A DNA stretch of 64,000 nucleotides from NCBI GenBank assembly GCA_030698395.1, contig JAUYKW010000027.1, positions 3,174 to 67,173 of the forward strand. Reading direction: 5' to 3'. The translations under genes and the position numbers were made by a program. This document shows positions 459-61,242 of this stretch, piece by piece. Below the pieces are notes generated by a model. That model saw nothing but the letters and a program-made list of their open reading frames with translations, searched no databases and was not told where the DNA came from. The stretch is from a bacterium. Lineage in GTDB: Bacteria > Patescibacteriota > Patescibacteriia > UBA9570. Numbering within the stretch: position 1 is the first letter of the stretch; each line of letters starts with the position of its first letter.

Positions 459-1592
459 ATGACCACTCCCCTATCATACATTGAATTGTCTAAAGACAAT
501 TTGTTATCAAATATTAATAATATAAAATCTATATTGCCAAAAAATATAGGACTGGGTTGTGTTGTAAAAGCAAATGCTTATGGCCATGGATATGCCGAAA
601 TTGTTAACATTATAAAATCCCATGTAGATTATTTATTAGTAGATGATTTTTCCGAGTTTAAAAAAATCCGTAATATAACCGATAAACCAATTATCCTTTT
701 AGGTTATGTATCTAAAGACGAATTATTGCAAACTATTGAACTAGATGGCATCTTGGCGGTTTATGATATCGAACGTCTTCCCTTGCTTGATAACCTTGCT
801 CACAGACTTAATAAAAGAGTTAAGATACACATAAAAATTGATGCACACTTAGGCAGACAAGGAATTCTAGTTGATGCTGTAGAAGATTTTATCGTGGAAT
901 TAAAAAAATATAAAAATATAGCTATTGACGGCGTATATGCGCACTTTGCAAACATAGAAGATACATCAGATGTAACTCACGCGGAAAAACAAATTAGTGA
1001 GTACAAAAGAGCAATTGAGATATTTCAAAGAAATGGATATGACAAAATTGAAAGCCACATATCTTCAACATCTGGGATACTAGCATACGAACAAAAATCA
1101 GGATCGTCATCATTAGTAAGATTTGGCATTGGATTATATGGCCTTTGGCCATCAGAAGGATTAAGAAACATTTATGGAAAAAATGGAGTTACACTTAAAC
1201 CTGTCATGCGTTGGATAACTCATGTTGCTCAAGTAAAAACACTGCCAGCAAATTATCCAATTGGATATGGTATTACTTTTGTCACCTCAAAGAAAACAAA
1301 AATTGCCATTATTCCTCAAGGTTATAGCGATGGCTACGATCGTTCATTATCAAACGTAGGTGAAGTACTCATTCATGGCACTAGATGTAGAGTGCTTGGC
1401 AGAGTATCAATGAATATATTTACGGTTGATGTAACACATTTACCGGACATTAAACCAGAAGATGAAGTTGTACTATTAGGCCAACAAGATAATGAAATAA
1501 TTTCAGCTGAAGAAATTGCACAAAAAATAAACACTATCAACTATGAAGTGGTAGCTAGAGTTTCTTGGGATTTGCCGAGGACTATCGTGTAA
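459..1592 (+). CDS. alr: alanine racemase
   Basis: 377 aa. PLP-lysine motif VVKANAYGHGY near the N-terminus. TIM-barrel plus beta C-terminal domain layout. Lies immediately after ddl. Confidence 0.85.
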   Translation: MTTPLSYIELSKDNLLSNINNIKSILPKNIGLGCVVKANAYGHGYAEIVNIIKSHVDYLLVDDFSEFKKIRNITDKPIILLGYVSKDELLQTIELDGILAVYDIERLPLLDNLAHRLNKRVKIHIKIDAHLGRQGILVDAVEDFIVELKKYKNIAIDGVYAHFANIEDTSDVTHAEKQISEYKRAIEIFQRNGYDKIESHISSTSGILAYEQKSGSSSLVRFGIGLYGLWPSEGLRNIYGKNGVTLKPVMRWITHVAQVKTLPANYPIGYGITFVTSKKTKIAIIPQGYSDGYDRSLSNVGEVLIHGTRCRVLGRVSMNIFTVDVTHLPDIKPEDEVVLLGQQDNEIISAEEIAQKINTINYEVVARVSWDLPRTIV

Positions 1593-2216
1593 ATGAGATA
1601 TCTCAAAGAACCCTTAGAAGAAATAACCGAAATTACTGCAAAAATGCAGTATTCTTTACGTAACTACCCAGGGTCAGTAAAACGTCCGTATCTCCGCTCA
1701 GAAGCGAAAAATAGGCTTCTAAAGGCTAATGAATATGCGCAAAAGACATATAATTCATCAATATTGATTTGGGATGCTTACCGCACATCTTTGTGTCAAG
1801 GTTTCTTGTTTTATAATTTCTATTCAACCCTAAAAAAAGATATTTCTAATGGCGCTCAGTTAGTACAGAACACATTAAAATTTGTTGCCTGGCCAGATGA
1901 TTACGCGCCTCATAAGAGCGGTGGAACTATAGACATGACCTTGATTGATATTAATGGAACTCCCCTCCCAATGGGCGGAGAATATGATGAGTTAACTGAA
2001 CGTTCGTTCACAGCTTATTATGAACGAGACAATTTAAGTTCTGCAGAAATAATTTACCGTGACAACCGTAGAAAAATTCAAGACGTAATGTTAAAAGTTG
2101 GTTTCATTAACTATGAAGAAGAATGGTGGCATTTTGAATACAAAACAAGACGCTATGCAAAGATGCACAACGAAACTGAAATATACGGTCCTATTAATGC
2201 AACTCCTAAGCCCTAA
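1593..2216 (+). CDS. ddpX: D-Ala-D-Ala dipeptidase, VanX/DdpX (M15D) family
   Basis: 207 aa. Zn-ligand spacing matches VanX: H-x6-D (HKSGGTID) and E-x-x-H (EWWH). The start codon abuts the alr stop. Confidence 0.65.
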   Translation: MRYLKEPLEEITEITAKMQYSLRNYPGSVKRPYLRSEAKNRLLKANEYAQKTYNSSILIWDAYRTSLCQGFLFYNFYSTLKKDISNGAQLVQNTLKFVAWPDDYAPHKSGGTIDMTLIDINGTPLPMGGEYDELTERSFTAYYERDNLSSAEIIYRDNRRKIQDVMLKVGFINYEEEWWHFEYKTRRYAKMHNETEIYGPINATPKP

Positions 2217-3480
2217 GCTCAGCCAAACCTTTCATGTAAGGATGTAAAACTTGAGGAAGCTTAACACTACCATCAGCTTGCTGGTGGATTTCTAACAAAG
2301 GTATTAACAATCTAGGTGAAGCAGCTAAAGTATTGTTTAAGGTCTGACAAAATTGTGTTTTACCATCATTATCTTTATACCTTAATTGTAAACGTCGCGC
2401 CTGAAAATCTCCCATCCAAGAACACGAGTGAGTTTCACCGTATCCATTTCGCGATGGCATCCATGTTTCAATATCACGTTTATATTTCTGAGGAGCTCCC
2501 ATTTCACCAGTGCATAGCTCCATTACTCGAAATGGTAAATCTAAGGTTTCCATAAATTCCTCAGAATTTTTCATAATTTCTTCAAAAAGCTCCATAGCAA
2601 TCATGTCATCATTCTGACATAATATCACTTGCTCCACCTTATTAAATTGTCGCAACCGATATAAACCTTTAGTATCTTTACCATAACTTCCTACTTCAGT
2701 TCTAAAGCATGGCGTCCAAGCAGTATATTTTTTTGGTAATTCCTCAACAGACAATGTTTCATCAGCGTGATATGCACATAAAGTAATCTCTGATGAACCA
2801 ATTAAATGCTGTTCCTTTTCTTTATCTAATGCACGGAATGTTTCATCTTTCATCCACGGAAAATAACCAGTTCCAAAAAAATAATCTTGATACGTCATCA
2901 ATGGTGTTACAAATTGGGTGAATCCCCTTTCTCGCAAAAAATCCAGCGCATATGTCATTAAAGCTATCTCTAACTGAGCGCCTGCTCCTTTTAGATAATA
3001 TCCTCTCGTTCCGGTAACTTTAACTCCCCTTTCCACATCAATTATTCCTAATTCATTACCTAAAGTTATATGATCTTTTGGTACAAAATCAAATTTTGGT
3101 ATTTCACCTACAGTTTTAATTTCAACATTATCGTTTTCATCTTTACCAACAGGAACCTTTGGATCTGGAATGTTAGGAATGTTTAACATTATTTCTCTAA
3201 ATTCTTGCTCAACTTTTCCAAAGATTCTCTCTAAGTCCTTCACTTCTAAAGCAATCTTTCTCATCAACTTTATTTTATCTCTTTTCAAATCATCAGGAGC
3301 AGTTGCAATTTCTTGATTGGCATTATGCTGCTCTGATTTAAGATCATCAATTCTTTTTTGTAATTTTCTCCTTTCAGCATCTACATCTAACAACTCCGTT
3401 ATGGAAACCTCAATATTCTTCTGCTCTGCAGCTTGTTTAACTAATTCAATATTTTCTCGAATAAATTTAATATCTAACAT
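2206..3480 (-). CDS. serS: seryl-tRNA synthetase
   Basis: 424 aa. N-terminal coiled coil, then class II core (FRTEVGSYGKDTKGLYRLRQFNKVE motif 2, GxGxG motif 3 region). Confidence 0.9.
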   Translation of the reverse strand: MLDIKFIRENIELVKQAAEQKNIEVSITELLDVDAERRKLQKRIDDLKSEQHNANQEIATAPDDLKRDKIKLMRKIALEVKDLERIFGKVEQEFREIMLNIPNIPDPKVPVGKDENDNVEIKTVGEIPKFDFVPKDHITLGNELGIIDVERGVKVTGTRGYYLKGAGAQLEIALMTYALDFLRERGFTQFVTPLMTYQDYFFGTGYFPWMKDETFRALDKEKEQHLIGSSEITLCAYHADETLSVEELPKKYTAWTPCFRTEVGSYGKDTKGLYRLRQFNKVEQVILCQNDDMIAMELFEEIMKNSEEFMETLDLPFRVMELCTGEMGAPQKYKRDIETWMPSRNGYGETHSCSWMGDFQARRLQLRYKDNDGKTQFCQTLNNTLAASPRLLIPLLEIHQQADGSVKLPQVLHPYMKGLAELRA

Positions 3481-3490
3481 AGGAGTAATT

Positions 3491-5566
3491 TTAGGCTAAT
3501 TCTAGATCCTCAGCAATGCCCTGCATCGCCTCTAAACATAATTCAATCGCCTGATCCAAATTAATTCCCAACATTTCATCACATTTTTTTATCATGTCTC
3601 GTTCAACACCTTTGGCAAATGATTTATCTTTAAATTTCTTCTTAATACTTTTAACTTCTACTGATGCAATTTTTTTGTCTGGCCTCACTAAAGTTGACGC
3701 TATTATTAAACCTGTTAGCTGCTCTAAACACTGTAAATTTTTAGACATGATAGTTTTAGCCTCGATACCATGGTGTTGATTATGTTCCCTGACAGCATCT
3801 ACAACAGCATCATGAACACCTTTCTTTTTTAACATTTCCGCACCTACTAAACTGTGTTCTTTTAATTCAACATCCTCATAATCAATATCATGTAATAATC
3901 CAGCTATACCCCATGCTTCAGGTGATTGTGCAGAAAAATGTTCAGCCATTTTCACCATCAATGCCTCTGTTGCCAACATATGTTTTCTTAAGTTTTCATC
4001 AGTAACCTCCTGAAACATATAATCTTTAGCATCAGCTCGTGATATTCCAGCGTCGAATTTCTGCAATGTGATGTCATTAGATATAACTACACTAGATTGA
4101 ACAGTCTCTTCGTTTATAATATGTTTAGGCCGCATCAATGGGAACATGACACATTCTTTAATAGGCTTGTCCATTAAAAATGAAAATAGCCTTTCACTTA
4201 CTCCAAATCCCGAAGTCGGAGGCATACCAACTTCCAACGCTTCTACAAAATCTTCATCATGCATTTGGGCTTCTGCATCACCAGCATCTCTTAGTTTAGC
4301 TTGTTCGTTAAACCGTGCTCGCTGATCAATCGGATCATTCAACTCTGTATAGCCGTTTCCAAGCTCACTTCCAGCAATCAACACTTGATACCTCTCTACT
4401 AATCTAGGATCATCAGCTTTACGTTTCGCTAAAGGAGAAACTTCCACTGGATGATTTACTAAAAATACTGGGCCGACAATACTTTTTCTACAATTCTTCA
4501 TTAAAGCATCAATTAATCTACCTCTTCCTACATCAGCCGAAATATCTATCTTATTTTTTTTACAAACACTCAATATCTCTTCATCAGTAGCATCTAAAAT
4601 ATCAATTTCTAATTGATCCTTAATAATTGTTGTGTAATCTACTTCTTGCCATTCTTGATCTAGATTTACATCGTTACCTTTTATTGAAAAACTCAATGTA
4701 CCAAACGCTTCATTAATTGCATATTTGTACATACGTTCAACTAACTTCATGCTGTCACGATAATTTGCATACGCCCAATAGAATTCCATTTGGGTATAAT
4801 CCTGTAAATGCTCTGGACTCATTCCTTCATTTCTAAATTGTCTGCCAATTTCAAATGTTTTTTCAAAACCACCCACCATCAATCTCTTCTGCCACAGCTC
4901 ACCCATAGATATTCGTAAATATAGGTCAATGTCCAAAGCATTGTGATGCGTTTTAAACGGCTCAGCATCAGCGCCTCCTGGCGTTACCTCCAACACTGGT
5001 GTTTCAACTTCTAAAAAATCTTCTTTTAGTAAGAAGCTTCTAATTGCATTCCAAAAAATACTCTTTTTTACAAACATCCCTCGTAGTTCTGGGTTCATCA
5101 GCATATCCACGTATCGTTTTCGATACCTCAACTCCTCATCCTGAATACCATGCCACTTATCGGGCAAAGGCTGTAATGCCTTACTTAACATTGTAATATC
5201 ACTAACAAGAATTGACTGTTCACCCTTTTTTGTAATGAACACTTTTCCCGTAACCTCGACAATATCACCAACGTCAAAAATTCTTAACTGCTTGTATTTA
5301 TCACCAAAATCTTCTTTGGCTAATGCAATTTGAATTTTTCCAGAAAAATCCTCTAATTGTGCAAATGACAGCTTGCCATGATCTCTAAGAAATCTAATTC
5401 TGCCACAAACTATAACTTCCTGATCATCGAGTTTATCAAAATTACTAAACACATCGTCCACCGTGTGGGTTCGATTACTTTCCGAAGGATAAGGATTTCC
5501 TATATCCGACAAGTATTCATTGTGTTTTTGAATACGAACTTCTTTTTCAGATTGATGATCTGTCAT
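3491..5566 (-). CDS. lysS: lysyl-tRNA synthetase (class II) fused to a C-terminal YqeK-like HD-domain hydrolase
   Basis: 691 aa. Residues 1 to about 495 carry the OB-fold anticodon domain and class II core, ending with the motif 3 region GFGVSERLFSFLMD...VMFPLMRP. The last ~195 aa carry H...AGLLHDIDYE...H..VGAEML...GVHDAVVDAVREHNQHHG, which matches the YqeK/HDIG signature (AGLLHDIGK; AIRYHTSG). Confidence 0.85.
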   Translation of the reverse strand: MTDHQSEKEVRIQKHNEYLSDIGNPYPSESNRTHTVDDVFSNFDKLDDQEVIVCGRIRFLRDHGKLSFAQLEDFSGKIQIALAKEDFGDKYKQLRIFDVGDIVEVTGKVFITKKGEQSILVSDITMLSKALQPLPDKWHGIQDEELRYRKRYVDMLMNPELRGMFVKKSIFWNAIRSFLLKEDFLEVETPVLEVTPGGADAEPFKTHHNALDIDLYLRISMGELWQKRLMVGGFEKTFEIGRQFRNEGMSPEHLQDYTQMEFYWAYANYRDSMKLVERMYKYAINEAFGTLSFSIKGNDVNLDQEWQEVDYTTIIKDQLEIDILDATDEEILSVCKKNKIDISADVGRGRLIDALMKNCRKSIVGPVFLVNHPVEVSPLAKRKADDPRLVERYQVLIAGSELGNGYTELNDPIDQRARFNEQAKLRDAGDAEAQMHDEDFVEALEVGMPPTSGFGVSERLFSFLMDKPIKECVMFPLMRPKHIINEETVQSSVVISNDITLQKFDAGISRADAKDYMFQEVTDENLRKHMLATEALMVKMAEHFSAQSPEAWGIAGLLHDIDYEDVELKEHSLVGAEMLKKKGVHDAVVDAVREHNQHHGIEAKTIMSKNLQCLEQLTGLIIASTLVRPDKKIASVEVKSIKKKFKDKSFAKGVERDMIKKCDEMLGINLDQAIELCLEAMQGIAEDLELA

Positions 5567-5572
5567 GAAAAT

Positions 5573-6040
5573 CTATGAAATCTTTTTTACTGTAAAATTT
5601 GTAACTCCTTTTGGAACTTTTATCTCAACAACATCTCCAACTTTACTACCTAACAAAGCTGCTCCCATTGGAGATTGATTTGAAATCTTACCGTCTATAG
5701 GATTGGCTTCATTGGAACCAACAATTTTAAAAACTTGAACTACACCTTCATTGTTCTCAGCATCAACAGTAGAACCAATTACAACCACACTTGATGTTGT
5801 TGGTTTTTCTATAATTTTTGCATTTCTAGCCTGTTCTTCCATATCAATAATTCTGGATTCAAGTAATCCCTGAGCTTCTTTGGCATCGCTATATTCTGCG
5901 TTCTCTGATAAATCTCCTAATTCTTTTGCACTTGCTATTCTACCAGCTATATCTTTACGCTCAGTTGTTTTTGCATATTCAATATCTCTTTTTAGCTTCT
6001 CTAAACCTTCTTCTGTTACATAAAAAGTCTTATCTTCCAT
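5573..6040 (-). CDS. greA: transcription elongation factor GreA
   Basis: 155 aa. N-terminal coiled coil with the conserved acidic tip (GDLSENAEY) and a C-terminal FKBP-like domain. Confidence 0.9.
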   Translation of the reverse strand: MEDKTFYVTEEGLEKLKRDIEYAKTTERKDIAGRIASAKELGDLSENAEYSDAKEAQGLLESRIIDMEEQARNAKIIEKPTTSSVVVIGSTVDAENNEGVVQVFKIVGSNEANPIDGKISNQSPMGAALLGSKVGDVVEIKVPKGVTNFTVKKIS

Positions 6041-6124
6041 GATCTTAAGTTATGAATAAATTTATTAATAATGCGTAGTATTCTAGTATAACTTATACGT
6101 ACTGTCAATCTTTTTTAAGTAATT

Positions 6125-8086
6125 TTACGGCTTATTTGAAAAATACTCCTCCAATACTCGTACAGCTATTGGCAATGCTGATTCTGTACCTTCCCCACCT
6201 TCCTCGACTAGCACAGTTAAGACTATTTCTGGATCATCATAAGGAGCAAATGAAGTAAACCAAGAATGAGTTTTGTCAGTTCCTCCTACCTGTGCTGTTC
6301 CAGTTTTACCTGCAACTGCCACAGAAAGAGAATTCATTCTTTTTGCACTTCCAGAAGTCACCGCTTGTCTCATTCCTTCACGTACCAACTGTACATTGTA
6401 TGAATTTATAAAACCACTATTCTTTACTTCACTTTCAATAAGATAATCAACATCTCCGGCCTGACTTTTTATTTGATCTACTAAACGTGGCTTATAAAGT
6501 GTTCCGCCATTTGCTATTACAGATGTAAATAATGCAACTTGCAAAGGTGTAACTAAAACGTCACCTTGGCCAATAGAAGTATTATAAGTATCACCAATGT
6601 ACCATGGTTCACCTTTCACGGTCTCCTTCCACTCTTTAGTTGGTAAGAAACCCGCAGCTTCCGCGGGTAAATCAATACCAGTAATGTCACTTAAACCAAA
6701 CTTGCTGGCATATTCATTTATTTTATCAATGCCCAAGCCACCCTCAATTTCTCTAGTTTCCTCATTGTATACACCACCACCTGCTAAATAGAAATATGTA
6801 TTTACAGATTCTGCCAATGCTTTTCTAACATCTGTTTGGCCATGACCTCCGGATTTCCAATCAGGGAAGAACCATTTATTTATTTGCACTCCGCCATTAC
6901 TTAAGACTGTCGTGTTAGCATCTACAACTCCTTCTTCTAATGCAGCTGCAGCTACAACTAATTTAAAAGTTGAACCAGACGGATATTCACCCATAACTGC
7001 TTTGTTAAAAAGTGGTTTGCGCTCATCATTGATGAGAGTCTGATAATCTTCATTATTTATACCTTTTATAAAAGAATTAAGATCGTATCCTGGAAAACTA
7101 ACTAAGGCTAAAATCTCTCCATTTTTGGGATTAATTGCAACTGCTGCACCACCTGGACTACCTATGTCTCGTGATGTTTCAGCTAAAGCGTCATATAAAG
7201 ATTTCTGCAATGCTACATCAATGGACAGGTCCAAATTACTACCAGGCAAAGGATCTTCTCTAGCAATTACTTCTATCTCGTTACCCAATGCATTAACTTC
7301 AACTTGTTTCTTGCCCTTCTTTCCTTTTAAGGGATTTTCATAAATATCTTCCAAACCATTTTTTCCTATCATATCTGAAAGTAAATAATCACCATCATCT
7401 ATTTTCTCAATATCACTCTCCCCAACTTTTCCAATATATCCCATAACATGAGATAGCTCTTCCGAATAAATGTATTCTCGTGATGCTTGAACCTCAACTT
7501 CAACTCCTGGTAAATTGCTTACTCGAGTTGAAAATGTTAAAGCCTTCTCATATGGCAGAAATTCTTCCAACACAAGAGGTTGCGCATATAATTTCTCTGC
7601 ATGCTCACTAACCTGCTTTTCTAGATCTGCTACAGACATTTCTAAAATATTAGCCGTTTGCTGTAACGTCTCATTATATAAATCTTTACTTTTTGGTAAA
7701 TTACTTGGAGTTATTGTAATAATGAAGTTTGGAATGTTTTTTACTAATTGTTCTCCATTTTTATCGTAAATAATTCCTCTAGATGCCGATAAATAATTAA
7801 TTCTAATTCTGTTGCCGTCCGCGATATCACGATAATCAGCACCCATCGCAATTTGTAAATAGGATACCCTAAATAATAGTACTGCCAAGCCAAAAGCAAA
7901 CACATACAATAGTCCTCGGACTCTGTTATGAGTGATTGCATCAGATAAAAATTCAGGAGTTTCAGTTTTATTTGGAATATCTACGTCAGCAACAACCTGA
8001 CCTTTATAACTAGAGGAAATTTTTTTATCCTTAATTGATTTATCAATAAATGGTGAAAATATATCGGACATACTAAATGAATACAA
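6125..8086 (-). CDS. mrdA: penicillin-binding protein 2 (class B transpeptidase)
   Basis: 653 aa. N-terminal TM, dimerisation domain, transpeptidase motifs STFK (SxxK), SVN and KTGT. Lies directly downstream of mreBCD. Confidence 0.8.
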   Translation of the reverse strand: MYSFSMSDIFSPFIDKSIKDKKISSSYKGQVVADVDIPNKTETPEFLSDAITHNRVRGLLYVFAFGLAVLLFRVSYLQIAMGADYRDIADGNRIRINYLSASRGIIYDKNGEQLVKNIPNFIITITPSNLPKSKDLYNETLQQTANILEMSVADLEKQVSEHAEKLYAQPLVLEEFLPYEKALTFSTRVSNLPGVEVEVQASREYIYSEELSHVMGYIGKVGESDIEKIDDGDYLLSDMIGKNGLEDIYENPLKGKKGKKQVEVNALGNEIEVIAREDPLPGSNLDLSIDVALQKSLYDALAETSRDIGSPGGAAVAINPKNGEILALVSFPGYDLNSFIKGINNEDYQTLINDERKPLFNKAVMGEYPSGSTFKLVVAAAALEEGVVDANTTVLSNGGVQINKWFFPDWKSGGHGQTDVRKALAESVNTYFYLAGGGVYNEETREIEGGLGIDKINEYASKFGLSDITGIDLPAEAAGFLPTKEWKETVKGEPWYIGDTYNTSIGQGDVLVTPLQVALFTSVIANGGTLYKPRLVDQIKSQAGDVDYLIESEVKNSGFINSYNVQLVREGMRQAVTSGSAKRMNSLSVAVAGKTGTAQVGGTDKTHSWFTSFAPYDDPEIVLTVLVEEGGEGTESALPIAVRVLEEYFSNKP

Positions 8087-9397: not shown

Positions 9398-10447
9398 TTA
9401 GTTATCCTCTGTATCTGTATCAAATACAATTGATTTCGTAAGTGCGTCAATGTCTTCAAGTATCAAACCAGTACCCCGCGCCACAGCTGTTAATGGATCA
9501 TCTACTACTTTTACTGGAATATTTGTTTCAGCTGCAATTAATTCATCTAATCTCGGTAATAATGCTCCACCACCAGTTAATAATATACCTCTCTCATATA
9601 TGTCTGAGATTAATTCTGGGGGCGTACCTTCAATAGTAGCTTTTATATTATCAATAATTTCAGAAACTGTTCTAGCCATAGAGTCTCTTATACCAACACT
9701 GTTAATTTCAATTTCCTTTGGCAATCCAGTTAATAAATCTCTTCCTCTCACAGGAGTTGATATATTTTCCTCTAATGGTAGTGCTGATCCAATAGCTATT
9801 TTAACCTTCTCCGCAGTACGTTCACCAATTAATAAATTAAATTCATCACGACAATAATTCATAATATCTTGATTTAAGTCATCACCTGCAATCCTGAGAG
9901 ATTTCCAATTAACAACACCTCCTAATGAAATTACTGCTATTTCACTAGTACCCCCACCAATATCAATAACCATACTACCTGTTGATTCTTGAACAGGTAA
10001 TCTAGCACCAATAGCTGCTGCCATTGATTCCTCTACTAAAAGAACCTCTCTAGCTCCAGCACTCTTAGCAGCGTCTTCAACGGCTTTTCTTTCTACTTCA
10101 GTTACTCCAATTGGAATTGCAATTACAACTCTTGGTCTTGGTAATAATGAAAATGTTTCTCTATGAACCTTGTCGATAAAATGCTTTAACATTTTTTCAG
10201 TTACCTCAAAATCAGATACAACTCCATTTACTAACGGCCTCGTAGCCACAATATGAGCTGGAGTTTTACCTACCATATCTTGTGCATCTTGACCCACTGC
10301 CAATATTTGATCTGTCCTAATATTAATAGCAACGACCGATGGCTCGTTTATAACAATACCTTTATCCTTTACATATACCAAAGTATTTGCAGTTCCCAGA
10401 TCGATACCAATGTCCTTCGATACACTTCCAAATATCTTATTAAGCAT
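9398..10447 (-). CDS. mreB: rod shape-determining protein MreB (actin homologue)
   Basis: 349 aa. GIDLGTANTLVYV phosphate-1 motif, DIGGGTSEIAV phosphate-2 motif, LTGGGALL adenosine motif. Confidence 0.9.
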   Translation of the reverse strand: MLNKIFGSVSKDIGIDLGTANTLVYVKDKGIVINEPSVVAINIRTDQILAVGQDAQDMVGKTPAHIVATRPLVNGVVSDFEVTEKMLKHFIDKVHRETFSLLPRPRVVIAIPIGVTEVERKAVEDAAKSAGAREVLLVEESMAAAIGARLPVQESTGSMVIDIGGGTSEIAVISLGGVVNWKSLRIAGDDLNQDIMNYCRDEFNLLIGERTAEKVKIAIGSALPLEENISTPVRGRDLLTGLPKEIEINSVGIRDSMARTVSEIIDNIKATIEGTPPELISDIYERGILLTGGGALLPRLDELIAAETNIPVKVVDDPLTAVARGTGLILEDIDALTKSIVFDTDTEDN

Positions 10448-11666
10448 GTTTTTTTATCATTTCATTTAACGGTAATAGCTCAACTTCGTCACTACTTCTT
10501 GGTTTGTACTCAACTTTACCATCACTTTTCGAACCTACTACTAAGCGATATGGTAAACCGATCAAGTCAGCATCTTGCAATTTCTTACCTGCTGATAATT
10601 CACGATCGTCATACAGTACAGCAAAACCTGCTTTCTGTAAAGAGTCATATACCTCATCGCTTTGAACACTATTATTGTTCAAGTTAATCAGATGAAACTT
10701 GAATGGCGCAACTTCCTCTGGCCAAGCAATGCCTTTTTCATCATGATATATCTCTACAATAGTACCCATTAATCTACTCAATCCTATACCATAACAACCC
10801 ATTATCACATCATGGCTTTTACTCATATCATCATCATAATGCAATCCAAATGGTTCAGAATATTTTGTTTGTAATTTGAAAATGTTTCCTACCTCAATAG
10901 CAGATTCTTCCTGAAATTCATTGCCTTTGCATTCTGGGCAACTAGGTGTTTCATCCTTAATTTCTTTATTAATAGCCAATTGACAATTTTGACATACATA
11001 AATAATATCCTCACCAGATTCCGATACCGCTTGATATTCATGTGAGTACTTTGAAAAAGCACCACCAGATGCATAGGTTAAATGTGTTACATCCCTTAAA
11101 CCTACGCGAGAGAATATTTTACTATATGCCTCCATTGCTTTTTCGTAATAATCGTTCAAATCTGTCTCATTTGTATGAAATGAATAAAGATCCTTCATTA
11201 AGAATTCTCGCCCACGTAATAGACCAGCTTTAGGTCTTAATTCTTTTCTAAACTTAGTTTGAAACTGATAAACAGCAAATGGCAAGTCTTTATACGATGA
11301 AATATATTGCTGTACTAATGGTACGACAATTTCTTCATGAGTTGGCCCTAAAGTAAACTGCCTGTCACTGGTATCTTCCAACTTATACAAAATATCATCC
11401 ATTTCATCCCATCTACCGGTTTTTTGCCAATTACTTTTTGGATGTAAAGCTGGCATGAGAATTTCTTGACCATCTATTTCATTTATCTCTTCCCGAACAA
11501 TATCCTCAATTTTTTTCATTACAATTCTACCTAAAGGTAAAAAAGAATAAACCCCCGCCATTAATTTATCAATATATCCTGCTCTAATTAAATATTGAGC
11601 ATTAATACTTGTTTCATCCTTTGGTACATTTTTTAAGGTCTTTGTAAAAAGTTGTGATTGTTTCAT
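10440..11666 (-). CDS. proS: prolyl-tRNA synthetase, short form without INS editing domain
   Basis: 408 aa. Collinear with bacterial ProRS (LGPTHEE, FRKELRPKAGLLRGREFLMKD motif 2). A CxxC...CxxC zinc-ribbon insert (CQNCQ...CPECKG) sits where the INS domain would be. Confidence 0.85.
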   Translation of the reverse strand: MKQSQLFTKTLKNVPKDETSINAQYLIRAGYIDKLMAGVYSFLPLGRIVMKKIEDIVREEINEIDGQEILMPALHPKSNWQKTGRWDEMDDILYKLEDTSDRQFTLGPTHEEIVVPLVQQYISSYKDLPFAVYQFQTKFRKELRPKAGLLRGREFLMKDLYSFHTNETDLNDYYEKAMEAYSKIFSRVGLRDVTHLTYASGGAFSKYSHEYQAVSESGEDIIYVCQNCQLAINKEIKDETPSCPECKGNEFQEESAIEVGNIFKLQTKYSEPFGLHYDDDMSKSHDVIMGCYGIGLSRLMGTIVEIYHDEKGIAWPEEVAPFKFHLINLNNNSVQSDEVYDSLQKAGFAVLYDDRELSAGKKLQDADLIGLPYRLVVGSKSDGKVEYKPRSSDEVELLPLNEMIKKHA

Positions 11667-30523: not shown

Positions 30524-32305
30524 CTACTCGTCTTCAGTATCCGCTTTTACAACCGCTTTAATTCGCCTTACACCAGCACTACAAGCTTTTTCTTTTAGTA
30601 TTTTAAACTTACCAACTTCTTTAGTGTTATTTACATGAGGTCCACCACAAAATTCCTTAGAAAAGTCCCCTATAATGTAGACTTTCACACGATCTGCGTA
30701 CTTCTCATCAAATAAGCCAATAGCTCCCATTTTTTTTGCTTCATCAACAGTCATTATCTTATAATGTACATCTAGCCCTTCCTGAATTTTTTCATTTACC
30801 ATATCTTCGACGGCCTTTACCTGTTCATCAGTAAGTTTGTCTGGATGAGAAAAATCAAAACGAACTCTCTCTGGCGTGATGTTAGACCCTCTTTGCAAGA
30901 CATGCTCACCCAATACTCTTCGCAATGATTCCTGCAGTAAATGAGTTGCCGTATGTCCTCTAATAGTCTCCCAAGATGCATCTGCCAATCCACCTTTAAA
31001 GCGTTTCTGGGCACCAGCTCGAGATGTTTCCTGATGTTGCAGATAAAACTCATCAAAACCTTCTTCATCTATCACAATACCTTTTTCTGCTGCTAGTTCT
31101 TTTGATATCTCTAATGGAAACCCATATGTATCGAACAAATGAAAAGCATGTTCACCTGGCATGATATCATTTGCTTTTAAATGCTTAGTTAACTTCTGAA
31201 ACTGTTTTTCACCAGATTTTAAAGTTTTTTCAAACTTTTCTTCTTCATTAACAATCTCCATTTTAATTTCAGATCTATTTTTTTCCAACTCTGGATAAAA
31301 CTCACCGTACTCAGCGATGACAATATCAGCAATATCTTGTAAAAAGAAATCTGTAATTCCTAATTTCCTGCCATGTCTAACCGATCGTCTAATTAATCTT
31401 CTTAATACATAACCTTGATCAACATTTGATGGGCTTACACCATCGGCAATAATAAAAGTTGCGGCCCGCATGTGATCACAGATAATTTCTTTTGATGTAT
31501 CTTCATGATAAACTGCCAATTCAGTTATCTTATCCATTATTGGCACAAAAAGATCAGTTGTATATACCTCCTCCTTACCGTTCAATATAGCAGTTACCCG
31601 TTCCAATCCCATGCCAGTATCAACATTCTTTTGTTTTAATGGTGCATATGTTCCATCCTCAAGTTTATTGAACTCCATAAAAACATCATTCCAAATTTCT
31701 ACATACTTACCACAAGAACAACTCGGCTCGCAAGTAGGGCTACATTCTTGTAATCCAGTATCATAAAACATTTCAGTATCTGGTCCACATGGTCCTGTTG
31801 CACCAGCCGGACCCCACCAATTTTCTGATTTTGGATAATAATATATATGATCACCAGGCACGCCAAGATTTCGCCAAATCCGTGCAGATTCTTCATCTCG
31901 AGGTGCATCATCATCGCCTGCAAATACACTAACAGACAACTTACTCTTTGGGATATTTAGCCATTCTTCGCTAGTAAGAAATTCATAACTCATTGCAATC
32001 GCTTCTTCCTTAAAATAGTCACCCAACGACCAATTTCCCAACATTTCAAAAAATGTCAGATGCCATCTATCCCCCACTTCTTCGATATCGCCTGTTCTAA
32101 TGCATTTCTGAACATTCGTTAATCTTACTCCGGCTGGATGTGTTTCTCCCATTAAATAAGGGATTAAAGGATGCATTCCGGCAGTTGTAAATAATACCGT
32201 AGGATCATGCTCCGGAATTAAAGACGCTGAACCAATTGTTGAATGTTCTTTCTGTGAAAAAAATGCTAAATATTTGCTACGAATTTCTTTAGATGTAATG
32301 CTCAT
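30524..32305 (-). CDS. alaS: alanyl-tRNA synthetase, catalytic plus editing domains, no C-Ala domain
   Basis: 593 aa. N-terminal class II AlaRS core (FTTAGMHPLIPYL...), editing-domain HxxxH (GHTATHLL) and CxxxH (FCGGPHV) motifs. Ends after the editing domain. Confidence 0.85.
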   Translation of the reverse strand: MSITSKEIRSKYLAFFSQKEHSTIGSASLIPEHDPTVLFTTAGMHPLIPYLMGETHPAGVRLTNVQKCIRTGDIEEVGDRWHLTFFEMLGNWSLGDYFKEEAIAMSYEFLTSEEWLNIPKSKLSVSVFAGDDDAPRDEESARIWRNLGVPGDHIYYYPKSENWWGPAGATGPCGPDTEMFYDTGLQECSPTCEPSCSCGKYVEIWNDVFMEFNKLEDGTYAPLKQKNVDTGMGLERVTAILNGKEEVYTTDLFVPIMDKITELAVYHEDTSKEIICDHMRAATFIIADGVSPSNVDQGYVLRRLIRRSVRHGRKLGITDFFLQDIADIVIAEYGEFYPELEKNRSEIKMEIVNEEEKFEKTLKSGEKQFQKLTKHLKANDIMPGEHAFHLFDTYGFPLEISKELAAEKGIVIDEEGFDEFYLQHQETSRAGAQKRFKGGLADASWETIRGHTATHLLQESLRRVLGEHVLQRGSNITPERVRFDFSHPDKLTDEQVKAVEDMVNEKIQEGLDVHYKIMTVDEAKKMGAIGLFDEKYADRVKVYIIGDFSKEFCGGPHVNNTKEVGKFKILKEKACSAGVRRIKAVVKADTEDE

Positions 32306-40273: not shown

Positions 40274-41620
40274 CTAAAGTTCAACTTCCTGTCCATATTC
40301 TGGAACATCAGTAATAACACCTAATGTTTTTGTAATAGTGTCTGCCAACTCTAACGCACCTGCTTCCTCACCATGGGTTAGCCAAATTTTAGATATTTCT
40401 GGCTTATTATGAGTTAACCACTTCATAAGCTGATCTTTATCAGCATGAGCAGAATATGCACCGATTGGTCGGATTTTTGCTTTAACAGTATATTCCTGTT
40501 TTTCGATCACAACTACTTTTTCTCCATCTAATAACTTTCTACCTAAAGATCCTTCTACCTGATATCCAATGATTAATATTTGAGTTTTATAATCAGATAA
40601 GTATCGTTTCAAATGATGTCTTATTCTTCCTCCCTGCATCATACCTGACGCAGCCATTATTATTTTTGGTGCTTTTACATTGTTAATTTTTATTGAATCC
40701 TTTACTGTCTCCGTCATTTGTAAACCGGGAAAATCAAATAAATCATCACCGGAATCTAGCAAATATTTAGCTTCTTTGTTGAAGAGATGATTATATTTTG
40801 GATACAGTCGAGTTGCTTTGATTGCTAACGGGCTGTCTACAAATATTGGCACTTTTGGAATATCCTCATTTTCTACTAAACTGTTTAATTCATATAGAAC
40901 TTCCTGGGTACGCTCTAAAGAAAATGCTGGTATTAATAATACACCACCCATTGTTATAGTCTCGTATATCGCTGATTTTAATAATAGTGATCTATCTCTG
41001 GAGGCTTCATGCTTTCTTGCTCCATAAGTTGATTCCATAACCACATAATCCACTTGTTCCAAGTACTCAGTTTCTTTTAACAACGGAACTGGTGGATTCC
41101 CTATATCGCCTGAAAAAACTATAGTCTTACCGCCAGCAGTAATATATATAGATGAAGATCCCAAAATGTGTCCAGCGTCATAAAACTCTAAACTAAAGGG
41201 TCCTAAACTAATTTTTTGATGATATTCAACGCCTTGGAATTTTTGTACCGTGCTAATGACATCTTCTTCATCATACAACGGTTCATGTCCATGTTCCTCT
41301 GCCTCCGACTGAATAACGTGCACGCTATCACCTAACATCAACTCAATAAAAGATAGTGTTGCATGCGTAGCTACAATTTCTCCATTAAAACCCTCCTTTA
41401 CTAACTTAGGGACTCTACCACAATGATCAACATGCGCATGTGTGATAGCTATATAATCAACATCTTTTGGATCGAATGGAAATGGCGCTAAATTATCTTT
41501 TTCTGAAAAATGAGCGCCTTGTATCATTCCACAATCAATTAATAATTTAGAACCTTCATGTTCTAGTAAGTAGCAAGATCCTGTTACCATTCGGCATGCG
41601 CCAAAAAAAGATAATTTCAT
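40274..41620 (-). CDS. MBL-fold beta-CASP family metallo-hydrolase (RNA-metabolising nuclease type)
   Basis: 448 aa. HAHVDHCG (HxHxDH) motif, beta-CASP insert, C-terminal His motif. Confidence 0.75.
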   Translation of the reverse strand: MKLSFFGACRMVTGSCYLLEHEGSKLLIDCGMIQGAHFSEKDNLAPFPFDPKDVDYIAITHAHVDHCGRVPKLVKEGFNGEIVATHATLSFIELMLGDSVHVIQSEAEEHGHEPLYDEEDVISTVQKFQGVEYHQKISLGPFSLEFYDAGHILGSSSIYITAGGKTIVFSGDIGNPPVPLLKETEYLEQVDYVVMESTYGARKHEASRDRSLLLKSAIYETITMGGVLLIPAFSLERTQEVLYELNSLVENEDIPKVPIFVDSPLAIKATRLYPKYNHLFNKEAKYLLDSGDDLFDFPGLQMTETVKDSIKINNVKAPKIIMAASGMMQGGRIRHHLKRYLSDYKTQILIIGYQVEGSLGRKLLDGEKVVVIEKQEYTVKAKIRPIGAYSAHADKDQLMKWLTHNKPEISKIWLTHGEEAGALELADTITKTLGVITDVPEYGQEVEL

Positions 41621-42180
41621 ATTTGTTGTGATAAATATTTACAAAACTTTCTAACTGCTTTTGATCTGTGATCATATTGTTGTTTTTCTGCAATGGTCAT
41701 TTCAGCAAATGTTCTAGTATCTCCAGCAGGAATAAAGATATTATCATACGGCATTTTATACTTAATTTTTCCCCGAACACGATTCGTCAACTTCCCAGTA
41801 ACTTTTCCACTAAATAACATAGGTTCAGATCTTGCAGATTTTTTATATGCAATATAACTCGCAAAAAAAGCTGATTGATTATTCTTTATTAATTTTAATA
41901 ACCCTGAAAACCCCAAGCTTGCAAACATAAATCTAGAATAAACACCTGGAAAATGTTTATAACCTTTAAAAAAAATACCAGCATCATCAACTATCACTGG
42001 TTTTTTAACTATCTTATATGCTTGCTCAATTTTATCTTTTATAACCTCTTCCAAACTATCAGCTTGAATTTCTGGAATATCAAACGAACGACTAACCAAC
42101 TTAATATTATATTCAGCTAATGCTGATCCAATTTCCTCTAATTTACGAGGATTACTGGTAACCAGAGTAATCTCCTTCAT
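41617..42180 (-). CDS. rdgB: non-canonical purine NTP pyrophosphatase (Ham1/RdgB family)
   Basis: 187 aa, collinear with RdgB: TSNPRKLEE (SxNxxK), DDAG, PGVYSRF, C-terminal YDNIFIP...EKQQYDHR. Confidence 0.8.
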   Translation of the reverse strand: MKEITLVTSNPRKLEEIGSALAEYNIKLVSRSFDIPEIQADSLEEVIKDKIEQAYKIVKKPVIVDDAGIFFKGYKHFPGVYSRFMFASLGFSGLLKLIKNNQSAFFASYIAYKKSARSEPMLFSGKVTGKLTNRVRGKIKYKMPYDNIFIPAGDTRTFAEMTIAEKQQYDHRSKAVRKFCKYLSQQI

Positions 42181-48940: not shown

Positions 48941-49396
48941 CTACGTTAGCTCTTCAACTTGATCAATATAATGCCAGATGATTTCAAGATGATCAAAGGC
49001 AATCTCTTTTTCTGATGGTAATTTATTAATATCAAACCATTTAACTTCAGAAACTTCTTCGGAATCTGGTTCAGAAACTTTTTTGATAAGTTTAATTACA
49101 AAAGCAAATGAAATATTTTGTCGATCATCAGATTTTCTATTTGGCTTATCTATGATTGTTAACAAATCCTCTACTACGCTAGTATAGCCAACTTCTTCTA
49201 ATACTTCACGCATTACTGCTTCTGATGTTGTTTCACCGTGTTCAACAAAACCACCAGGCAAAGACCATTTTCCATTCTCGCGCAATTTATCTGCACGTTT
49301 TGTGAGTAGGATTTTATTTTTATCTATAATTACAGCATCAACAACTGCGTGTCTAAGCTGAGCAATATCCCCTTTTTCGAATTTACATTCAATCAT
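48941..49396 (-). CDS. NUDIX hydrolase
   Basis: 151 aa. Nudix box GGFVEHGETTSEAVMREVLEEVG (Gx5Ex7REUxEExGU). Confidence 0.8.
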   Translation of the reverse strand: MIECKFEKGDIAQLRHAVVDAVIIDKNKILLTKRADKLRENGKWSLPGGFVEHGETTSEAVMREVLEEVGYTSVVEDLLTIIDKPNRKSDDRQNISFAFVIKLIKKVSEPDSEEVSEVKWFDINKLPSEKEIAFDHLEIIWHYIDQVEELT

Positions 49397-54181: not shown

Positions 54182-54712
54182 TTATCGTGAACTTACAATC
54201 TCACTTGTATTTTCCGATTCACATGATCTAATTCGTAAAATCCCAGTAGTTTCTTTTTGGATGGTATAGCCTGTAGTTGCTGCTGTCCAAGTTCCAAGAC
54301 CATCAGGACTAATTGGTATGTCTCCAATGTAACCTTGAGTTATAATATCATCACCTCCGGTAGTTAAATCCAAACAAACTGCTTGCGTAGGGTTTGTATC
54401 ACAGAAATCAGTTACAGTTGTAGCTGTTGCTCCACTAGCACAAGAACCAATTAAGTAAACTTCACCTGCAGTCGCGCCATTAACTGCTGAATTGTAATAT
54501 CCGCCATTATCAACCTGATCCACTTTAAGTGCAGACAAAACTTCACTGGCTTGTGCTGCTCTTTTTGAATCTCTAGAATCAGCTAATCTCGATAAAGGAT
54601 CCAAGGCAACAAATAGAATCACAGCCAAAATTGCAATAATCGCCACTACGATTAAAAGCTCGATTAATGTGAAACCTTCATTTTTTTTATTTAATTCTTG
54701 TCGAATGTTCAT
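54182..54712 (-). CDS. type IV pilin (major pilin candidate)
   Basis: 176 aa. Class III signal ...NKKNEG|FTLIELLIVVAIIAILA with Glu at +5. Two Cys near the C-terminus. Confidence 0.75.
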   Translation of the reverse strand: MNIRQELNKKNEGFTLIELLIVVAIIAILAVILFVALDPLSRLADSRDSKRAAQASEVLSALKVDQVDNGGYYNSAVNGATAGEVYLIGSCASGATATTVTDFCDTNPTQAVCLDLTTGGDDIITQGYIGDIPISPDGLGTWTAATTGYTIQKETTGILRIRSCESENTSEIVSSR

Positions 54713-56025: not shown

Positions 56026-56414
56026 CTAGTTAAAGAAACATCTCCACCAGATACTACTGTAACAGCTTCTACTGTTGCATAATAATCACTTATATTTCCA
56101 ATAGAATTGATTGCCCGTTCAGTACCCCCATCAGACGTAACCGTTATTGTACAAGAATTACCACCTATACTCAAGACCTGAGTACCAGCTCCGACTGCCC
56201 AATTTTCATCATAGCGCAATCTGCGTAATACTTCCTCTGTACAACTATCCGCTAATACTATGGCAGATTCTGTTTCACCAGCAGAATAACTTAAGTCCAA
56301 CTCGCCAATTCCTAACAAACTAATTGATAAAGCTATTGTAGTTGTAACAGACGCAATTATAACAATTGCTATTAATGCTGCTGCTCCAGAGTGATCAAAT
56401 AAATATATTTTCAT
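56007..56414 (-). CDS. pilin-like/PilX-like small protein (no canonical E+5)
   Basis: 135 aa. Hydrophobic N-terminus MKIYLFDHSGAAALIAIVIIASV... Lies between pilin-like genes. Confidence 0.4.
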   Translation of the reverse strand: MKIYLFDHSGAAALIAIVIIASVTTTIALSISLLGIGELDLSYSAGETESAIVLADSCTEEVLRRLRYDENWAVGAGTQVLSIGGNSCTITVTSDGGTERAINSIGNISDYYATVEAVTVVSGGDVSLTSWQLNP

Positions 56415-56917
56415 CTTCTTACGGATACTGCAGTTTGATAAGTTTGACTAGTTGCATACTCAGCACTATCCGTACCACTATATTGCAATGTCATTTGAAC
56501 ACGAACATTTTCCACTCGACCATTACCTGTTAAATTTGTAAATTGTAGATTTGTTACACTCACCAGTGTGGGCATCACAATAATTGGTCCGGTAGCTCCT
56601 TCAGTAATTTGTATTTGACCATTATCAGCTGTAAGTTCTATTACTGTTGGGTTCTTTGCCACGTCAGCCATTGATAGTTCTAACACGCCGGGATCTGAAC
56701 TAAAAGTACTTCCTCCTAAATTTACTCCGGATGAACCACGAATTGCATCTGTTATGTACTCCATTGCAAATCTAGCATTAGCGTTTATTTCCTGATGCAC
56801 CGCTGCTTTGGACCTAGCCTGAAACATAGTTAAGGAAAAACTGATAAAAGCTACAACAACAGCGCTAGTAAGGGCTACGTATATCAACAACTCAATTAAA
56901 GTAAAACCTTTTTTCAT
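56411..56917 (-). CDS. minor pilin/pseudopilin
   Basis: 168 aa. MKKG|FTLIELLIYVALTSAVV class III signal. Confidence 0.7.
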   Translation of the reverse strand: MKKGFTLIELLIYVALTSAVVVAFISFSLTMFQARSKAAVHQEINANARFAMEYITDAIRGSSGVNLGGSTFSSDPGVLELSMADVAKNPTVIELTADNGQIQITEGATGPIIVMPTLVSVTNLQFTNLTGNGRVENVRVQMTLQYSGTDSAEYATSQTYQTAVSVRR

Positions 56918-60789: not shown

Positions 60790-61242
60790 TTAATAAACTG
60801 CTCCCAAGCTTGTTACTGTTATATAAACTGATTGTACATCTGATGTTATCGTTACAGTTCCTGGATTATCCGGTAAAGCAGATCCTGCAGTAAAATTTAC
60901 TCCTGATAACCCAGAGATTTCAATGTTACCTTTCATTTGAGTTGTTATGTCATATGCTGTATCTCTAGTTGCATAACTAGTCCCCTGGTATAAAGTAAAG
61001 TTTGTTAAAGTAAAATTTACCCCATGTGCCGTACTGTTCTTTTTTCCTTTTGCCCGTTGATGCGCAACGCGAAGTGATTGCACAATTTCTTGTCTGGTTT
61101 GTTCTACTTGAGCTGTGTCCTGACTAGATCCATACAATCCCCCAATTCCAAATATCATTATACTTAAAATAGCAATCACAATTAATAACTCTACGAGTGT
61201 AAAGCCACGTTTATTGCTGTGTAATATTGCCAGTAATTTCAT
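60790..61242 (-). CDS. minor pilin/pseudopilin (GspH/PilV-like)
   Basis: 150 aa. ...SNKRG|FTLVELLIVIAILSIMIF class III signal. 32-nt overlap with the pilC 3' end. Confidence 0.7.
   Translation of the reverse strand: MKLLAILHSNKRGFTLVELLIVIAILSIMIFGIGGLYGSSQDTAQVEQTRQEIVQSLRVAHQRAKGKKNSTAHGVNFTLTNFTLYQGTSYATRDTAYDITTQMKGNIEISGLSGVNFTAGSALPDNPGTVTITSDVQSVYITVTSLGAVY

Follow-up and report, generated by a model that had tools for sequence, protein, structure and literature searches.

In Firmicutes, the symmetrical hydrolysis of Np4A (adenosine-containing dinucleoside tetraphosphates) is carried out by YqeK, which is also an Np4-RNA decapping enzyme, and most bacteria other than beta- and gamma-proteobacteria lack ApaH (PMC13010140); since both enzymes are restricted in this way, other phyla are left without an assigned Np4A hydrolase. 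YqeK is fused to NadD, as in mycoplasmas, or clustered with it, and hydrolyses NadD's side products (PMC9426524). The classic source of diadenosine tetraphosphate (Ap4A) is lysyl-tRNA synthetase (LysRS), which forms it from lysyl-AMP and a nucleoside triphosphate in a side reaction (PMC13627108). Among aminoacyl-tRNA synthetases, the only HD-fold domain described is that of GlyRS-beta; it influences tRNA charging though it is no hydrolase, and in E. coli its HD dyad is degenerated to Ser393-Lys394 (PMC8464048). Here we describe a gene for LysRS (lysS) in a 64,000-nucleotide stretch of contig JAUYKW010000027.1, from a Patescibacteriota assembly (GCA_030698395.1), whose product carries a complete C-terminal HD domain with apparently intact metal ligands. 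The whole stretch is hereafter called the window, and coordinates refer to it.

The fusion gene is one continuous frame (Table 1) and its product is identical to NCBI entry MDP3971175.1, "MAG: lysine--tRNA ligase [bacterium]" (MAG, metagenome-assembled genome). An earlier note on this DNA, made by reading the letters, had placed a complete class II LysRS in the first ~495 residues and an HD domain of the YqeK type in the last ~195 (about 3491-4090). The synthetase is indeed complete: the lysS models PRK00484 (549.8 bits, cutoff 468) and TIGR00499 (490.1 bits, cutoff 427.6) both match residues 5-481, motifs 2 and 3 are located (FRNEG at residue 244 and GFGVSERL at residue 453), and the full-length model match together with the OB domain and the catalytic core assigns it to the class II LysRS. 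It ends, however, at about residue 481 and not at ~495, and is followed by a linker (residues 482-507). The HD assignment was also borne out, as Pfam HD (PF01966; residues 528-602, 37.5 bits, cutoff 22) and the HDIG model TIGR00277 (42 bits, cutoff 27.6) score over their cutoffs, His529 and His559-Asp560 are present, and so are the strings that had been read as an HDIG signature (AGLLHDIDYE, HSLVGAEML and GVHDAVVDAVREHNQHHG). The domain boundaries proposed there are now moved to residues 508-691, residue 508 being equivalent to the position where free-standing HD homologues start. The AlphaFold2 (AF2) model of the HD domain alone is all-helical and confident (predicted local distance difference test, pLDDT, 94.3; predicted template modelling score, pTM, 0.90). 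In the full-length model both modules are confident and the pLDDT falls below 50 at residues 480-493, a stretch that we read as a flexible tether. By tblastn, no second copy of lysS or of the HD domain was found within the window. The HD module is apparently an active, metal-dependent phosphohydrolase.

When the C-terminal domain was searched alone, we retrieved more than 7,800 homologues, nearly all of them free-standing proteins of 181-197 residues with ~50% identity over the entire domain, annotated as 'HDIG domain-containing protein' or 'putative nucleotidyltransferase with HDIG domain'. An exhaustive search with a family profile retrieves fused and free forms together; at 50% identity they make up 494 clusters for E<=1e-30, and 2,854 for E<=1e-10. 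A genome scan, whose listed matches are unfused members only and which is thus uninformative on the frequency of the fusion, placed the family in at least 586 species genomes; most of these have no lysS near the HD gene, and they come from Chloroflexota, Bacillota, Caldisericota, Patescibacteria/Saccharibacteria, Elusimicrobia, Thermoplasmatales and further groups. Judged by this end-to-end similarity and by the same invariant residues, including a basic C-terminal motif, the fused domain belongs to a large uncharacterised HDIG family of ~183 residues, from whose other members it differs in that these stand alone and that most of them have Asp and not Glu as the last ligand.

The six predicted metal ligands of the fused domain are each occupied in at least 109 of 110 aligned fused C-termini, the alignment on which all conservation counts rest (Table 1). 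Conserved as strongly as the ligands are Asp562, Gly619, Phe650, Ala651 and Arg656 (Phe650 and Arg656 in all 110 sequences, Ala651 in 109). Across the family, the invariant residues are H, HD-I/V/L-D-W/Y, H, H, D/E-x-x-T/S-G and K...F-A...R. The HD dyad is followed by Ile-Asp-Tyr, giving the motif HDIDY, without the lysine of HDxxK; at the third position after the dyad, 83 of the fused sequences have Trp and 27 have Tyr. At the last ligand position, Glu is found in fused forms and in their nearest free-standing relatives from the Candidate Phyla Radiation (CPR), and Asp in most other members of the family. One LysRS fusion, P0175 (608 aa), retains only the HD domain's basic C-terminal half (EQLAG...RPDK...KKKFKDKSFA), the H..HD..H..H part being gone. 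It is likely the source of the exceptions at His559, His571 and His595. This copy may be in decay, or it may hint at a separate role for the basic half.

In the HD superfamily, the six-residue pattern H..HD..H..H..D is diagnostic of a dinuclear site, and among the tabulated phosphatases YqeK is the one entered simply as dinuclear, the phosphodiesterases having an additional His (HH) (PMC8177086). The module is therefore probably catalytically competent with two metal ions, as far as its conserved residues indicate. A phosphodiesterase of the HD-GYP/PgpH type was rejected, since the H..HD..H..HH..D pattern is required there and His595 is here followed by Asn (72/110), Gly, Cys or Ala; no GYP motif is visible in the family alignment. 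A degenerate, structural HD domain was likewise rejected, the dyad residues being retained in 109 or 110 of the 110 fused sequences.

Searched against the PDB, the family profile placed YqeK structures on top (8jja, E 1.4e-6, then 8wmy, 2ogi, 2o08 and 3ccg), and YqeK is, by sequence, the nearest relative of solved structure. Using a B. subtilis YqeK query, validated on TIGR00488 (284.6 bits, cutoff 70.15), hhalign aligned the family with YqeK at 96.4% probability over 108 columns, with 23% identity and the six ligand positions in register. The collinearity with B. subtilis YqeK claimed previously is thus confirmed for the catalytic core and fails for the C-terminal third, which is unaligned. 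In S. pyogenes YqeK, metal A is coordinated by His29, His58, Asp59 and Asp135 and metal B by Asp59, His91 and His117 (PMC11857287). Taken in sequence order, these six residues align with His529, His559, Asp560, His571, His595 and Glu615, the last one a conservative Asp-to-Glu replacement. Both are small (~185 aa) all-helical HD proteins with collinear ligands, and both have a genetic tie to an adenylate-forming enzyme, YqeK to NadD and the HD family to LysRS. They differ in an insertion of ~20 residues after the HD dyad, which YqeK has and the family has not, in the C-terminal third, which in the family is a different and highly basic subdomain, in the last ligand, which is Glu in the fused clade, and in the gene context, which for the window's domain is lysS/serS and not nadD. 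The YqeK context we take to be nadD-yqeK-rsfS, and nadD is absent from the recurrent neighbour clusters across the 84 loci in which we surveyed the neighbourhood of the free-standing HD gene, so that the nadD clustering or fusion typical of YqeK is not found. The domain's homology to YqeK is remote and confined to the metal-binding core.

Foldseek comparison of the domain model with the PDB gave no match at E<=1e-3 and did not discriminate HD subfamilies; the similarity is to the generic HD fold, with template modelling (TM) scores of ~0.45 for the GlyRS-beta HD domain, PgpH, Ddi2, YqeK and HDOD. The GlyRS-beta domain (7eiv), the top match, has lost its dyad and is internal to a tRNA-binding subunit, whereas LysRS-HD has invariant ligands and bears at its C-terminus, on a flexible tether, what is otherwise an autonomous enzyme. 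Another known LysRS fusion, LysX (MprF-LysRS; NF002821), also combines a full class II LysRS with a second enzyme that uses a LysRS product, but there the second enzyme is an N-terminal membrane lysyl-phosphatidylglycerol synthase consuming Lys-tRNA, and in the window protein it is a soluble, C-terminal, predicted phosphohydrolase. The window protein reaches 451 bits against the LysX model (cutoff 742), through its LysRS part only.

The fusion recurs widely. Among the best 120 matches of a database search with the full-length protein, 111 are of at least 600 aa and nearly all of these are LysRS-HD fusions with 48-67% identity, the C-terminal HD domain being present also in matches without a recorded PF01966. 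By source name they come almost exclusively from Patescibacteria (Kerfeldbacteria, Jacksonbacteria, Magasanikbacteria and "Patescibacteria group"), and the domain combination that the earlier note called unusual is so for LysRS in general and common within Patescibacteria. Two LysRS-HD proteins come from archaeal-labelled MAGs, P0172 (Candidatus Thermoplasmatota) and P0383 (Promethearchaeota); P0172 at least, with 56% identity, is closely related to the Patescibacteria proteins, and these labels look like binning contamination or lateral transfer. That the fusion is an artefact of assembly, frameshift or gene calling was rejected, since the frame is unbroken, an identical protein is found in NCBI and the same architecture is present in more than 100 independent fused homologues from different samples (110 of them aligned). 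Such artefacts do occur in the data, as in P0191, a mis-assembled duplicated LysRS, and we found no evidence for an artefact otherwise. With its ligands kept in at least 109 of 110 sequences, the fusion is real and under selection. Two N-truncated fragments, P0286 (271 aa) and P0340 (241 aa), join a LysRS motif-3 region of another sequence type (GMPPMSGLGLGIDRLLM...) to the HD domain, which suggests that LysRS-HD fusions exist also on a LysRS backbone that is not of the CPR type. We observed further C-terminal additions to CPR-type LysRS, namely DUF2000 alone (P0218, 636 aa), B3_4 and HD (P0178 and P0383), tRNA_bind, B3_4 and HD (P0325, 1072 aa) and HAD and HD (P0323, 918 aa); in CPR the LysRS C-terminus would seem a hot spot for domain addition.

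The gene neighbourhoods show where the fusion originated. Unfused lysS lies directly upstream of the free HD gene in five CPR loci, including Saccharibacteria, and the junctions are short: the TAA of lysS is followed immediately by an in-frame ATG in L025, an in-frame gap of 27 nt separates the genes in L058, gaps of 31 and 73 nt are found in L051 and L015, and the two genes overlap by 8 nt in L076. In CPR loci serS is downstream of the HD gene. In L011 lysS is 1.4 kb upstream of the HD gene with four small genes between, in the Elusimicrobia locus L087 it is ~0.7 kb upstream on the same strand, and L088 and L093 were placed in the LysRS neighbour cluster by the clustering only. Because the unfused HD gene adjoins lysS in other CPR, and because of the TAA-ATG junction of L025, where a single point mutation would fuse the two genes, the fusion arose inside a conserved lysS-HD-serS cluster, where the lysS stop codon or a short spacer was lost. 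In a neighbour-joining (NJ) tree of HD domains, which is of low resolution, fused and free forms are interleaved, which suggests more than one fusion event. In three contigs from CPR we also noticed a NUDIX gene just downstream of the free HD gene, directly in L009 (1956-2378), and one small ORF (open reading frame) after it and just before serS in L011 (5878-6348) and L012 (5895-6365). In four of the 84 loci (L057, L062, L066 and L093, near 4001), ORF extension met a stop soon after the HD match began and gave ORFs of 1-63 aa, which may reflect a frameshift, a pseudogene or an artefact of where the alignment starts.

The HD family is fused to LysRS far more often than to any other partner found. 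The other partners are PAS-PAS-GGDEF (P0299 and P0388; 15 contigs) and Ham1/ITPase (P0344; two contigs), and AMMECR1 and a beta-propeller in single contigs, and there are also the compound forms LysRS-HAD-HD, LysRS-B3_4-HD and LysRS-tRNA_bind-B3_4-HD. GGDEF, Ham1, HAD and LysRS all handle nucleotides, which points to nucleotide substrates, and since GGDEF and LysRS both make dinucleotide signalling molecules, a product-degrading hydrolase would be a natural partner for them. We propose that the gene supplies the cell with its housekeeping class II LysRS, joined by a flexible linker of ~26 residues to an HD phosphohydrolase. The LysRS module is predicted to charge tRNA-Lys and would form Ap4A/Ap4N as a side reaction; the HD module would hydrolyse a nucleotide polyphosphate that arises in the synthetase active site or close to it, Ap4A and other dinucleoside tetraphosphates (Np4N) being the leading candidates, and its activity may extend to Np4-capped RNA, as that of YqeK does. 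The tethered hydrolase would thereby remove or recycle the side product locally. The parallel is NadD-YqeK, where an essential adenylyl-transferring enzyme is likewise combined with an HD diphosphatase, where the genes are adjacent but separate in relatives, and where the proposed logic is that of a hydrolase clearing the nucleotide side products of its partner. There, however, the partner is a nicotinate mononucleotide (NaMN) adenylyltransferase and not an aminoacyl-tRNA synthetase, the HD family is another one, and the activity has been measured, whereas LysRS-HD is known here from sequence alone. We hold this reading, a bifunctional protein in which LysRS forms Ap4A/Ap4N and a tethered dinuclear HD module hydrolyses it or a related nucleotide polyphosphate, tentatively and at a little under an even chance; the coupling of Ap4A synthesis and removal in one polypeptide, which the earlier note had put forward, is plausible, with indirect support from the gene neighbourhood and the other fusions, and it may include a kinetic coupling to LysRS.

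Several observations weigh against this proposal. TIGR00488 is matched neither by the window protein (E<=1) nor by the isolated domain (E<=10), and only 19 of 24 family members touch it, with a best E of 1.1e-7. The catalytic or phosphate-binding lysine of YqeK is Lys62, in HDxxK, and the residues of S. pyogenes YqeK that contact ADP at the C-terminus are Leu172, Phe180 and Thr183 (PMC11857287). In the HD family the position of Lys62 is Tyr or Trp (HDIDY/W), the hhalign match stops at YqeK residue 129, just past the last ligand, and the C-terminal ~70 residues (basic RPDKK...KKKFKDKSFA...R) are unaligned with the nucleotide-binding C-terminus of YqeK. Membership in the YqeK family was rejected on these grounds, and with it the YqeK-type identity given in the earlier note, the ~50% identity being instead to the separate HDIG family. 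Since this membership fails and the Foldseek similarity is generic, the substrate specificity of YqeK is not transferable by homology. In a comparison of 24 family members with hidden Markov models (HMMs), the best E values are those of PRK12703 (1.8e-13), RNase Y (9.1e-13), DVU_1551 (1.2e-9) and TIGR00295 (4.4e-9), which places the family at least as near the RNase Y HD domain and PRK12703 as YqeK. The full-length AF2 model (pTM 0.66) has no confident inter-domain arrangement, leaving substrate channelling unsupported. In addition, the window encodes a separate NUDIX protein (48941-49396) and a separate Ham1 (41617-42180), so that the HD domain is not the sole candidate of this genome for nucleotide house-cleaning.

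The gene contexts weigh on the same side. The nearest unfused LysRS (P0200, P0221 and P0233, with 64-69% identity over the aligned LysRS part) have no HD gene between lysS and serS, in loci of identical mreBCD-pbp2-greA-lysS-serS synteny, and the HD module is dispensable at the lysS locus. This HD-less identical synteny and the interleaved tree make it probable that fusion, splitting or loss of the module happened repeatedly, and the module is not indispensable. In Bacillota, the HD gene is directly upstream of rnr on the same strand (median 79 nt, 18 loci), with the gene for SmpB downstream in 12, and in ten further loci, from Chloroflexota and single Calditrichales and Deltaproteobacteria MAGs, it is directly downstream of uvrA (gap of 33 nt in the median); a link to Ap4A is evident in neither context. 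The Bacillota rnr loci include L021, L027, L030, L036, L037, L039, L041 and L049 (about 4000-6800), and subsets of them have upstream an alpha/beta-hydrolase or thioesterase, a SecG-like small ORF (a judgement from its sequence), an enolase-like ORF or an H+-pyrophosphatase; this context corresponds to the Firmicute secG-est-rnr-smpB region of B. subtilis, the HD gene being an insertion ahead of rnr. The uvrA loci are L006, L016, L017, L018, L022, L023, L040, L044, L053 and L092 (about 1100-6200), and a convergent gene for an SbcC-like ATPase follows the HD gene in ten loci, largely overlapping this set. Neighbours of single free-standing members, such as GH57 and NIF3 in Caldisericum or UvrA in Dehalococcoidales, are uninformative singly, the patterns emerging only from the 84-locus survey. 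Finally, PDB searches with a single sequence and with the family profile found no solved structure of any member (phmmer with the C-terminal domain gave chance matches to bL20m only), and literature searches aimed at them found no paper on a LysRS-HD fusion or characterising the HD family, including under the label COG2316.

The contexts of RNase R and SmpB point to RNA, and the HD module could accordingly act on it, as a tRNA/RNA-end phosphoesterase (2',3'-cyclic phosphodiesterase or 3'-phosphatase) or an RNase Y-like endo- or exoribonuclease, which LysRS would deliver to tRNA-Lys, an explanation that we consider unlikely. HD domains of bacterial CCA-adding enzymes and of HD-Pnk carry out RNA-end healing of this 2',3'-cyclic phosphodiesterase/3'-phosphatase type. 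The RNase Y model matches the family better than the YqeK model does, and the family also matches the C-terminal 160 positions of PRK12703, named tRNA (cytidine(56)-2'-O)-methyltransferase; a Trm56-HD fusion is, however, hinted at only by the name and length of PRK12703, and none was found among the best 150 representatives, of which P0274 (339 aa) is a LysRS fragment, while the two Thermoplasmatales loci carry free-standing HD genes. Relatives with tRNA_bind and B3_4 modules between LysRS and HD exist, but these modules may serve LysRS and not HD. The C-terminal motif, invariant and rich in Lys and Arg, might serve to bind a nucleic-acid backbone, and the top Foldseek match is the tRNA-facing HD domain of GlyRS-beta, whereas the free-standing 183-aa proteins have no recognisable RNA-binding domain, and the partners other than LysRS (GGDEF, Ham1) are enzymes of small nucleotides. 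N-terminal extensions of ~80 aa were considered as RNA-binding domains and rejected, being mis-called upstream starts in high-GC genomes or LysRS fragments. Since YqeK is both an Np4A hydrolase and an Np4-RNA decapping enzyme (PMC13010140), an RNA-decay context is also compatible with an Np4A-type enzyme, and an Np4N-directed activity would reconcile the link to LysRS with that to RNA decay.

It is also possible, and in our view distinctly unlikely, that the fusion is functionally neutral, a general nucleotide-pool HD hydrolase beside lysS having been fused by genome compaction, with independent activities. The gaps of 0-73 nt or 8-nt overlap in unfused relatives, the single mutation that separates L025 from a fusion, the interleaved tree and the nearest unfused LysRS without the module in identical synteny would all fit, as would family neighbours that differ between phyla and the floppy linker of the full-length model, with no defined interface. 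What a neutral origin explains less well is that lysS and HD are adjacent across deeply diverged CPR (Saccharibacteria and other Patescibacteria), and ~0.7 kb apart in Elusimicrobia, that LysRS is so overwhelmingly the commonest partner, that the fusion is maintained at 48-67% identity in more than 100 clusters with an intact active site, and that even the elaborate LysRS-X-HD forms hold HD at the C-terminus. Very improbable is a non-catalytic module that binds or positions tRNA-Lys in the manner of the degenerate GlyRS-beta domain, even though 7eiv is the top Foldseek match (probability 0.99, but E 0.044 and TM 0.44), that domain affects charging without hydrolase activity (PMC8464048) and P0175 keeps only the basic C-terminal half, for the six ligands are near-invariant in the 110 fused sequences and in the free family, where the GlyRS-beta dyad is Ser-Lys, and the domain is an autonomous protein in at least 586 species genomes, mostly without lysS nearby.

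In the window, the fusion gene lies in a probable transcription unit with greA and serS (Table 1), and the order greA-lysS-serS is found also in relatives (L094, L096 and L097). Beyond serS, on the opposite strand, are alr and a gene for a VanX-like M15 dipeptidase.

Table 1. Coordinates of the LysRS-HD fusion gene, its domains and predicted functional residues, and the adjacent features, in the window (conservation counts are for the fused sequences).
Feature	Position (nt)	Strand	Remarks
LysRS-HD fusion ORF	3491..5566	-	ATG start; 691 aa; single stop codon at 3491-3493; frame continuous
Class II LysRS module, residues 1-481	4124..5566	-	Pfam and NCBIfam scores over curated cutoffs; motifs
OB anticodon-binding domain (tRNA_anti-codon, PF01336), residues 51-127	5186-5416	-	Pfam
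Class II catalytic core (tRNA-synt_2, PF00152), residues 143-478	4133-5140	-	Pfam
Inter-domain linker, residues 482-507	4046..4123	-	Low model confidence; no counterpart in either unfused gene
HD/HDIG domain, residues 508-691	3494..4045	-	Pfam, NCBIfam and family alignment
His529, predicted metal ligand 1	3980..3982	-	Aligns with YqeK His29 (8wmy); 110/110
His559-Asp560, HD dyad	3887..3892	-	Aligns with YqeK His58-Asp59; His 109/110, Asp 110/110
His571, predicted second-metal ligand	3854..3856	-	Aligns with YqeK His91; 109/110
His595, predicted second-metal ligand	3782..3784	-	Aligns with YqeK His117; 109/110
Glu615, last-ligand position	3722..3724	-	Equivalent to YqeK Asp135; Glu 109/110, Asp in 1
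Basic C-terminal motif RPDKK...KSIKKKFKDKSFAKGVER, residues 628-656	3599..3685	-	Family hallmark; no YqeK counterpart
greA	5573..6040	-	Directly upstream, 6-nt gap; first gene of probable greA-lysS~HD-serS transcription unit
Best promoter-like site	6080-6108		Upstream of greA; pattern match
serS	2206..3480	-	Directly downstream, 10-nt gap
Terminator-like hairpin	2151-2172		Just after serS; pattern match; only one

Other features of the window stand apart from the fusion. Alanine racemase (459-1592, +) is followed without a gap by the VanX-like D-Ala-D-Ala dipeptidase (Peptidase_M15; 1593-2216, +, ATG at 1593), and in relatives a D-Ala-D-Ala ligase gene follows alr in place of the latter. Two further synthetases are short. 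The prolyl-tRNA synthetase (10440-11666, -), of only 408 aa, has the class II core and the anticodon-binding domain without the INS editing domain, and, inside the stretch matched by the core domain, a zinc-ribbon-like CxxC...CxxC insert (CQNCQ...CPEC); the alanyl-tRNA synthetase (30524-32305, -), of only 593 aa, has the catalytic domain and, at its extreme C-terminus, tRNA_SAD, and appears to be without the canonical C-Ala region. Type IV pilin-like N-terminal methylation motifs are found in three minus-strand ORFs (54182-54712, 56411-56917 and 60790-61242), and these pilin-like ORFs surround a 1289-aa protein with a weak match to BNR/YCF48-like repeats. No tRNA genes, tmRNA genes or Rfam families at gathering score were detected across the 64-kb window. 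From 2206 onward the large ORFs are nearly all on the minus strand, and the GC skew is negative from ~2 kb to 12 kb, the part profiled.

LysRS-HD is a new architecture among synthetases with appended domains and not a new principle, as hydrolase domains on adenylate-forming enzymes are already known and the proteins are public as "lysine--tRNA ligase". The question that it touches is which enzyme controls Ap4A/Np4N in organisms other than beta- and gamma-proteobacteria, which have ApaH, and Firmicutes, which have YqeK, and the fusion, together with the conserved lysS-HD pair, provides a concrete and testable candidate for Np4N turnover. It is also the first functional lead for a large HD family (~500 clusters at 50% identity and E<=1e-30; at least 586 species genomes). 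A wider proposal, which we regard as rather doubtful, is that the ~183-aa HDIG family would be a third, unrecognised family of Np4N hydrolases and Np4-RNA decapping enzymes, serving phyla without ApaH and YqeK (CPR/Patescibacteria, Chloroflexota, Caldisericota, Elusimicrobia and many anaerobic Bacillota), and that in Patescibacteria it would be joined to the main Ap4A synthase, so that one polypeptide would make and destroy the alarmone and set its steady state. Should the substrate instead be an RNA end, the finding would be no less new, as the synthetase would then bring along an activity for tRNA-end repair. The hosts have minimal genomes, in which retained domains are likely to matter.

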